In this document: piece after piece, positions 1 to 528 of the stretch
Layout: each line of letters starts with the position of its first letter
Position numbering within the stretch: position 1 is the stretch's first letter
Assembly: GCF_053078305.1 (NCBI RefSeq)
Contig: NZ_CP166879.1
Direction: 5' to 3' (one strand)
Length of the DNA stretch: 64,000 nt
Notes under the pieces: model-generated
The model's input: only the letters and a program-made list of their open reading frames with translations
Told to the model about the DNA's origin: nothing
Database searches by the model: none
Translations under genes and position numbers: made by a program

Positions 1-528
1 GTAGTCACAATGAGTTCCCCGCGCTAGCGGGGATAAACCGCTCCAGCTCGATATCACACGACGCTATATCAGGAGTTCCCCGCGCTAGCGGGGATAAACC
101 GGAAACAGCGCCCGCCGGTGCTGCGTTACCGTGGAGTTCCCCGCGCTAGCGGGGATAAACCGCCAACAAACTCATTTGCACTGGATTCGTGGATGAGTTC
201 CCCGCGCTAGCGGGGATAAACCGACCGGCGCAATTGTTTTTCAGCAGCACCCGGCGAGTTCCCCGCGCTAGCGGGGATAAACCGTATTTTCTTTGTTGCG
301 GTAGGCAATATCGCCAGAGTTCCCCGCGCTAGCGGGGATAAACCGGTATTTTGTCACGACCAGCACGAGGCCGAATAGAGTTCCCCGCGCCAGCGGGGAT
401 AAACCGCCCCAACTCATGCCCACATGAAAAACGTTGACGAGTTCCCCGCGCCAGCGGGGATAAACCGCCGCAAAAGGTATTATTTTTATCCGTCAGTACG
501 AGTTCCCCGCGCCAGCGGGGATAAACCA
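1..528 (+). CRISPR. CRISPR array (type I-E repeat family), ygcE-side array (CRISPR2.1-like); 9 repeats, 8 complete 32-bp spacers; truncated by window start
   Basis: 29-bp direct repeats GAGTTCCCCGCGC(T/C)AGCGGGGATAAACCG starting at 12, 73, 134, 195, 256, 317, 378, 439, 500 with an exact 61-bp period; last repeat ends ...AAACCA (degenerate). Confidence 0.95.

Follow-up and report, generated by a model that had tools for sequence, protein, structure and literature searches.

The left end of the window (the whole stretch of 64,000 nucleotides from contig NZ_CP166879.1 that was analysed) carries the leader-distal part of an Escherichia coli CRISPR2.3 array, also known as CRISPR II, which lies between queE and ygcE and is cut here by the window edge. 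Over its first 1,300 bases, the window matches the queE-ygcE region in 5,396 of 5,426 complete E. coli genomes; queE itself is outside the window, but it adjoins the array in all relatives. The names CRISPR2.3 and CRISPR2.2 are those of Diez-Villasenor et al. (PMC3737337). The array resembles the CRISPR2.3 described there in its position by ygcE, its 29-nt repeat family, its 61-nt period, its terminal repeat and flank, and its companion mini-array, and differs from it in that six of the nine repeats visible in the window carry a minor loop variant, C14T (C to T at repeat position 14). Some of the window spacers are also present in the CRISPR2.3 arrays of strains PapRG-06-5, ECNB21-M121 and 23CRST027, which serve below as points of comparison (loci L001, L002 and L007, respectively). 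The exact array, or combination of spacers, is found in none of the 5,426 complete E. coli genomes, the best match having 95% identity, and an exact scan of metagenome contigs with a 55-nt junction returned no contig that extends the window. The first 11 nucleotides belong to the 3' end of a spacer; the array is thus truncated at the window edge, and its true first repeat lies outside the window. The coordinates of all features are collected in Table 1.

Table 1. Features of the two CRISPR loci in the window, with positions in comparison loci where indicated
Feature	Position	Strand	Remarks
Spacer 3' end at the window edge	1..11	+	GTAGTCACAAT; the end of spacer GTGGTTGCGGGGTTATCGGTGGTAGTCACAAT in ECNB21-M121 and 23CRST027
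Repeat starts, ygcE-side array	12, 73, 134, 195, 256, 317, 378, 439, 500	+	29-nt repeats
Leader-side block	12..345	+	Six GAGTTCCCCGCGCTAGCGGGGATAAACCG repeats (loop variant C14T) with five 32-nt spacers between them
Boundary spacer	346..377	+	T repeat upstream, C repeat downstream
Older block	378..499	+	Two canonical repeats (GCGCCAGC) and two spacers
Terminal repeat	500..528	+	28 bp of canonical repeat and A528
AT-rich region between the two queE-ygcE arrays	529..983	.	Conserved among strains; without homology to the CRISPR2.3 leader
CRISPR2.2 mini-array	984..1120	+	Three decayed repeats: 984-1010 (partial), 1031-1059 (ATGTTCCCTGCATCAGCGGGGATAAACCG), 1092-1120 (ATGTTCCCCGCGCCAGCGGGGATAACCAT)
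ygcE	1166..2644	-	FGGY-family carbohydrate kinase; fixes the chromosomal position of the array
Type I-E cas operon, full length	17569..26483	+	cas3, casA, casB, casC, casD, casE (cas6e), cas1, cas2
Leader of the cas-proximal array	26484..26579	+	AATCAAT.GGTTA, AGTTGGTAGATTGT and TATG.TTAG in common with the CRISPR2.3 leader of relatives
cas-proximal array (CRISPR2.1/CRISPR I)	26580..27579	+	16 GTGTT repeats (26580-27518) and a decayed terminal repeat (27551-27579)
Arrays with C in the first repeat and T in the next repeat or repeats	L002 3818-3907; L007 1635-1724; L015 1940-2029; L016 1940-2029		

Nine repeats with a period of 61 nt occupy positions 12-528, as direct reading, a repeat finder and a degenerate pattern search all agree; the degenerate repeat pattern has 25 matches in the window, nine of them here and 16 in the cas-proximal array, and none in 100 shuffles. 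Their assignment to type I-E is based on zero to one mismatches against GWGTTCCCCGCGCCAGCGGGGATAAACCG, the period of about 61 nt and the presence of eight different 32-nt spacers. An Rfam 15 scan of positions 1-1300 gave two chance-level hits only and no CRISPR repeat family. The first six visible repeats carry GCGCTAGC and the last three carry GCGCCAGC. In full, the first six read GAGTTCCCCGCGCTAGCGGGGATAAACCG and the seventh and eighth read GAGTTCCCCGCGCCAGCGGGGATAAACCG, ending in CCG; the ninth is the same as these two except for its final A, and so ends in CCA. At position 14 the order in the window is TTTTTTCCC, and the probability that six T and three C repeats would by chance be arranged with one T block on the leader side is 1/84. 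The original prediction had started from this six-then-three pattern, from the terminal CCA and from the GAGTT repeats of this array versus the GTGTT repeats next to the cas genes, and all of these sequence statements hold both in the pattern search and by direct reading.

The mini-array that separates CRISPR2.3 from ygcE contains a spacer, GACTTGTTATCATTTTTTAAGTTGTCGAACTT, that does not vary among the E. coli loci compared, and it is thus best described as a frozen relic array. At the second CRISPR locus of the window, Cas3, CasA-E, Cas1 and Cas2 all pass type I-E equivalog models. Cas3 (17569-22281 region, with CasA) scores well below the cut-off of a further equivalog model, NF007248 (431 versus 569 bits), and CasA falls far under that of another, NF007247 (101 versus 576 bits). 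It may be that these two models are strain-specific, in which case a divergent cas-E variant would stand beside the GTG-type array.

Mature crRNA carries an 8-nt 5' handle (PMC4288178), and its sequence, ATAAACCG, is that in which the repeats end; the + strand is therefore the crRNA sense, as had been proposed from the sequence at the outset. The leader had been placed upstream of position 1, outside the window, and the relatives support that placement: in every complete one the leader sits between queE and the first repeat. This leader is conserved (...AGTTGGTAGATTGTGACTGG...TTATGTTTAGA), and the same 60 nt (...AAAGTTGGTAGATTGTGACTGGCTTAAAAAATCATTAATTAATAATAGGTTATGTTTAGA) precede the first repeat, on the queE side, in every complete CRISPR2.3 array fetched. 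It is also homologous to the leader of the window's cas-proximal array, with the same orientation to the repeats. When the last 200 nt of a relative's CRISPR2.3 leader were compared with the whole window by BLAST, only positions 26474-26535 were returned. A leader adjoining position 528 is rejected, as nothing significant appears near 529-1030 in this search. It follows from the leader position in the relatives that the T block is on the leader side of the array, as first described.

The terminal CCA has a simple explanation. The A at position 528 is the first base of a conserved flank (CCATATAACCC..., CCATATAACCCGTTATCTCT) that is identical in 22 of 22 CRISPR2.3 loci, including those of K-12 and IAI1, and a decayed or mutated repeat end is thereby ruled out. 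The last base of the 29-nt repeat is known to be inserted with the protospacer (PMC3737337, PMC5039180). The duplicated unit is thus 28 bp. Base 29, which is usually the G that ends the PAM, arrives with each spacer; the terminal repeat has an A there because no spacer follows it, only flank.

Position 14 had been assigned to the repeat stem, with a possible effect on Cas6e processing. It lies instead in the loop. The repeat transcript consists of a 7-bp stem and a 4-nt loop followed by the 8-nt handle AUAAACCG, and the C-to-T change affects the third base of the tetraloop, converting GCCA to GCUA (GCTA in the DNA). Folding of four repeat variants predicts the same structure, ....(((((((....)))))))......., and the same energy, -15.1 kcal/mol, for both C14 and U14. 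According to Goren et al. (2016), conservation within type I-E repeats is lowest between the inverted repeats, and adaptation does not depend on the bases there: changes in them had effects of at most 3-fold, versus a roughly 100-fold reduction for stem mutations (PMC5039180). Beloglazova et al. found that, in vitro, Cascade can be loaded and can recognise its target without most of the 21-nt 3' handle, in which this hairpin lies (PMC4288178). A review of the field (PMC3727216) makes no statement on contacts between Cas6e and the loop. The T variant is likely to be functionally neutral. Deamination at a Dcm site was considered as the cause of C14T and rejected, the local sequence being CCAGC rather than CCWGG.

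Comparison of the repeat variants with those of other strains, which had been suggested as a check, places the window in a larger pattern. The T/C boundary falls at the same spacer (GTATTTTGTCACGACCAGCACGAGGCCGAATA) in the window and in L001, L002 and L007, despite differing newer spacers, and such a fixed boundary is a stable historical mark rather than a moving conversion front. A sequencing artefact, the other concern raised with the original prediction, is ruled out, since the boundary at GTATTTTGTCACG... recurs in these three independent complete genomes that have spacers in common with the window, and since the exact T-variant repeat is present in 45 of the 5,426 complete E. coli genomes, in 1-10 copies each. 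Within each of the 17 parsed E. coli arrays, the T repeats lie next to one another in one uninterrupted run. This run begins at the first repeat in 8 of 16 complete E. coli CRISPR2.3 arrays, an arrangement with a chance probability of between 1/56 and 1/11,440 per array.

Leader-side runs also recur outside E. coli. A scan of one genome per species detected the GCTA variant in 14 DNA stretches from 13 genomes, representing eight genera. In Escherichia albertii, a leader-proximal GCTA run comprises 8 of 10 repeats (TTTTTTTTCC). In Klebsiella grimontii it comprises 22 of 23 (22 T repeats and then a C), which implies that a T-type first repeat was the source for 22 or more spacer additions. The GCTA-rich array of K. 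grimontii 06D021 is at L033 5684-7056; a second array of this strain (L034 7-706) has GCTA in its two most distal repeats only. Single repeats or short distal runs occur in Citrobacter, Serratia, Pectobacterium, Leminorella, Salmonella diarizonae and Klebsiella spallanzanii. Surveys of Salmonella and Klebsiella CRISPR arrays already list the GCTA repeat GTGTTCCCCGCGCTAGCGGGGATAAACCG, or its complement, among their typical or variant direct repeats (PMC9754226, PMC8847753); the repeat is identical to the one discussed here, and the surveys do not analyse its position within arrays. Among the open-access papers found, none describes the GCTA variant in E. coli.

A block of variant repeats at the leader end had been called unusual, on the expectation that leader-proximal repeats should be the most canonical. 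The experimental literature leads one to expect the opposite. In the experiment of Yosef, Goren and Qimron (2012), the natural GAG/GTG difference served as a label in an array of two repeats, and after acquisition the first two repeats always bore the label of the former first repeat (PMC3384332). Because new repeats are copied from the first repeat, a mutation there passes to every later repeat. The leader-side T run in the window is very probably a case of this kind, in which C14T arose in the first repeat and was inherited by all later ones while the older repeats kept C.

The steps of such a history can be outlined. Cas1-Cas2 place each new spacer at the leader-repeat junction, and both of the resulting repeats are copies of the first repeat. 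As to timing, we infer that the leader-adjacent repeat mutated from C to T at position 14 when the array had three canonical repeats, or just after it had gained the spacer at 346-377. Repeats added later would inherit the T, older repeats would never be rewritten and would keep the C, and the array would thus be a record of the successive states of its first repeat. The change would be tolerated in the loop, where it leaves the 7-bp stem unaltered and where the bases are dispensable for spacer integration. The natural T14 run can be regarded as the population-scale equivalent of the 2012 labelling experiment. In both, later repeats inherit a one-base label from the leader-adjacent repeat; in the window, the label is at loop position 14 and not at position 2, and the evidence is comparative. 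The mechanism behind the polarity has been known since 2012, and the pattern, although real, is ordinary and already-known biology.

The difference between the two arrays of the window very probably came about by the same route. At position 2, nine of nine repeats in the ygcE-side array have A, versus T in 16 of 16 in the cas-proximal array, where the decayed 17th repeat (GAATTCCCCGCCCCTGCGGTAGAACACCC) begins with GA and the 16 intact repeats with GTG. This corresponds to the known dimorphism between CRISPR-A and CRISPR-T repeats (PMC3737337): the ygcE-side array is A-type and the cas-proximal array T-type, and there is nothing new in this. In K-12 and IAI1, all CRISPR2.3 repeats are GTG except the terminal repeat, which is GAG. 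The CRISPR2.3 arrays of these two strains are therefore of the CRISPR-T type, and the type of a given array is strain-specific. Their GAG terminal repeat under a GTG array follows the same logic at position 2 as the C repeats under the T run do at position 14. The original prediction had proposed that the two arrays are homogenised independently. That they carry different variants at position 2 is correct, but a homogenising process is not needed for this, as propagation of its own first repeat in each array would suffice. That new repeats might come from the other array was explicitly excluded by Yosef et al. (PMC3384332).

The E. coli arrays with T runs appear to be related. When flanks of 1 kb on each side are aligned, all of them fall into a single cluster of haplotypes, distinct both from T-free arrays and from those in which only one repeat has T; ungapped leader distances between the haplotype groups are inflated by a 1-nt indel, and the aligned comparison was used instead. 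The T-run loci (L001-L011, L013 and L014) have LemA and TPM-domain genes upstream of queE, and loci L015-L022 have yqcG/ygcG there, as in K-12-like strains. Given the single flank cluster and the LemA/TPM neighbourhood, one origin of the T run in E. coli is the simplest reading. Since the T-run lineages keep different C-flanked old spacers, spacer loss or recombination is also required. Separate events account for the single T repeats in O121, O178:H19 and the L011 group, for the run in L012 and for the occurrences in other species. In L012 it is the cas-proximal array that is affected, by an internal T run (C23-T8-C3), and the arrays of O121 and O178:H19 read C-T-C at the leader end.

Some of the T-bearing arrays do not begin with T (Table 1). 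In L002 and L007 the first repeat is C and the T run starts at the second, while in L001, the closest relative, the first repeat is T. An extra event is needed for C before T, possibly a change in the first repeat, a mutation of the second repeat only (during gap filling) or recombination. Because the partial spacer at the upstream edge of the window matches the L002/L007 lineage, the first repeat of its own array could be C. Import of a C-type first repeat and first spacer into L002 and L007 from a common C-type array was considered and is not supported. The first spacer of these two arrays is present at full length only in four T-carrying genomes, and 185 other hits to it represent a different spacer that is offset by 3 nt, as in IAI1.

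The targets of the spacers provide a further view of how the array grew. The boundary spacer (346-377) has a perfect match, with an AAG PAM, in a lambdoid prophage that is found in 435 E. coli genomes, within a hypothetical gene. The next older spacer, at 407-438, matches the neighbouring ImmA/IrrE gene of the same prophage, with an ATG PAM, and is also 100% identical to phage vB_EcoM-705R4. The two targets are 846 bp apart on the same strand (4001-4032 and 4847-4878 in L024; E. coli JJ1887 and 434 other genomes). Adjacent spacers directed against one strand of one prophage resemble the products of primed acquisition, which would have been sequential and in situ. The spacer at 285-316 has matches, including the leading G, in two genomes, and the other five window spacers have no exact match in the collections searched. 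Among T-flanked spacers, only one has an exact target in complete genomes.

These targets bear on the best-surviving alternative, namely that homologous recombination within a repeat brought together a T-type block from the leader side and the C-type distal block of another lineage. Recombination between E. coli arrays is documented (PMC4524480), and several arrays in the comparison point to it: the leaders of L002 and L007, whose first repeat is C, differ at 7-10 of 340 nt from those of the other T-run arrays, L005 has a divergent downstream flank, and T-run arrays with common flank haplotypes have different C-flanked old spacers. A former terminal repeat, recognizable as a repeat followed by A, is found internally in L004 (1696-2639), L006 (2001-2822), L008 and L010, and these internal repeats are evidence of past fusion or rearrangement of arrays. 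For the boundary in the window, recombination is nevertheless improbable. Both boundary-side spacers derive from one prophage, which suggests that the array grew across the boundary in one cell line and was not assembled from two, and the boundary spacer and the two spacers distal to it are common to four strains. Moreover, under recombination the T run would simply have originated in a different array, and templating by the first repeat would still be needed there.

In the four arrays with an internal former terminal repeat, it is followed by four more units, with repeats that are GTG-type or otherwise altered. L004 has a duplicated spacer as well.

Concerted evolution, in which gene conversion or unequal exchange homogenises neighbouring repeats within each array, is the process implied by the wording of the original prediction. 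It would agree with the identity of repeats within each block and with the difference between the window's two arrays at position 2. As an account of the T run it is very improbable, given that four strains whose later histories differ have the same spacer at the T/C boundary, that terminal repeats keep the ancestral GAG in arrays that are otherwise all GTG, that the runs are polarised to the leader in three species, and that by experiment the source of new repeats is the first repeat and not other repeats or the other array (PMC3384332). It is scarcely credible that the GCUA loop rose by selective advantage through altered Cas6e binding, crRNA level or array regulation: independent GCTA runs in E. 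coli, E. albertii and K. grimontii (22 of 23 repeats in the last) would be in keeping with this, but the variant is rare in E. coli (45 of 5,426 genomes), runs need no selection if each new repeat is copied from the first, no part of type I-E repeats is less conserved than the loop, which is also dispensable for adaptation (PMC5039180), the neighbouring loop cytosine undergoes similar C-to-T events, and the predicted folding of the GCUA repeat is unchanged.

Templating by the first repeat thus accounts best for the inheritance of the variant; how often such mutations arise is a separate matter. When runs were counted as single events in a set of 37 loci with 608 repeats, 12 events fell at unselected position 13 (11 were C to T) and 0-4 at every other unselected position; the loci had been chosen for position 14, so the count at that position is biased. 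The three other loop positions together account for 18 of the 34 events outside position 14, and GCTA has arisen independently in at least eight genera. It is conceivable, though rather doubtful, that loop cytosines 13 and 14 are a true mutational hot spot, exposed to deamination in a hairpin that the palindromic repeat extrudes within single-stranded DNA. Were this so, changes of GCCA to GCTA or GTCA would recur beyond expectation, and arrays could act as clock-like recorders of first-repeat events. The excess of events also agrees with the loop as the least constrained part of the repeat, and a higher mutation rate and greater tolerance are possible explanations that are inseparable in these counts.

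For other arrays, repeat variants of this kind can date spacers and give the polarity of an array without sight of its leader. The T/C boundary, together with the conserved terminal repeat and flank, could be used to orient and subtype CRISPR2.3 arrays, and the T-run lineage, which makes up part of the 45 of 5,426 genomes, marks one queE-ygcE haplotype group. A note of caution for annotation is that 'non-canonical' repeats on the leader side, or a base other than G after the last repeat, should not be read as decay. Beyond this, the pattern offers a clear example, from nature, of a rule that is already established, and has little import outside this window.

Two minor irregularities occur in the cas-proximal array. 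One spacer (27158-27184) is short, at 27 nt, which gives a local period of 56 nt versus 61 (27129-27213). In addition, two repeats are followed by C (26913) and T (27396) instead of G; the spacers there have a first base other than G, and that base was not derived from an AAG PAM.
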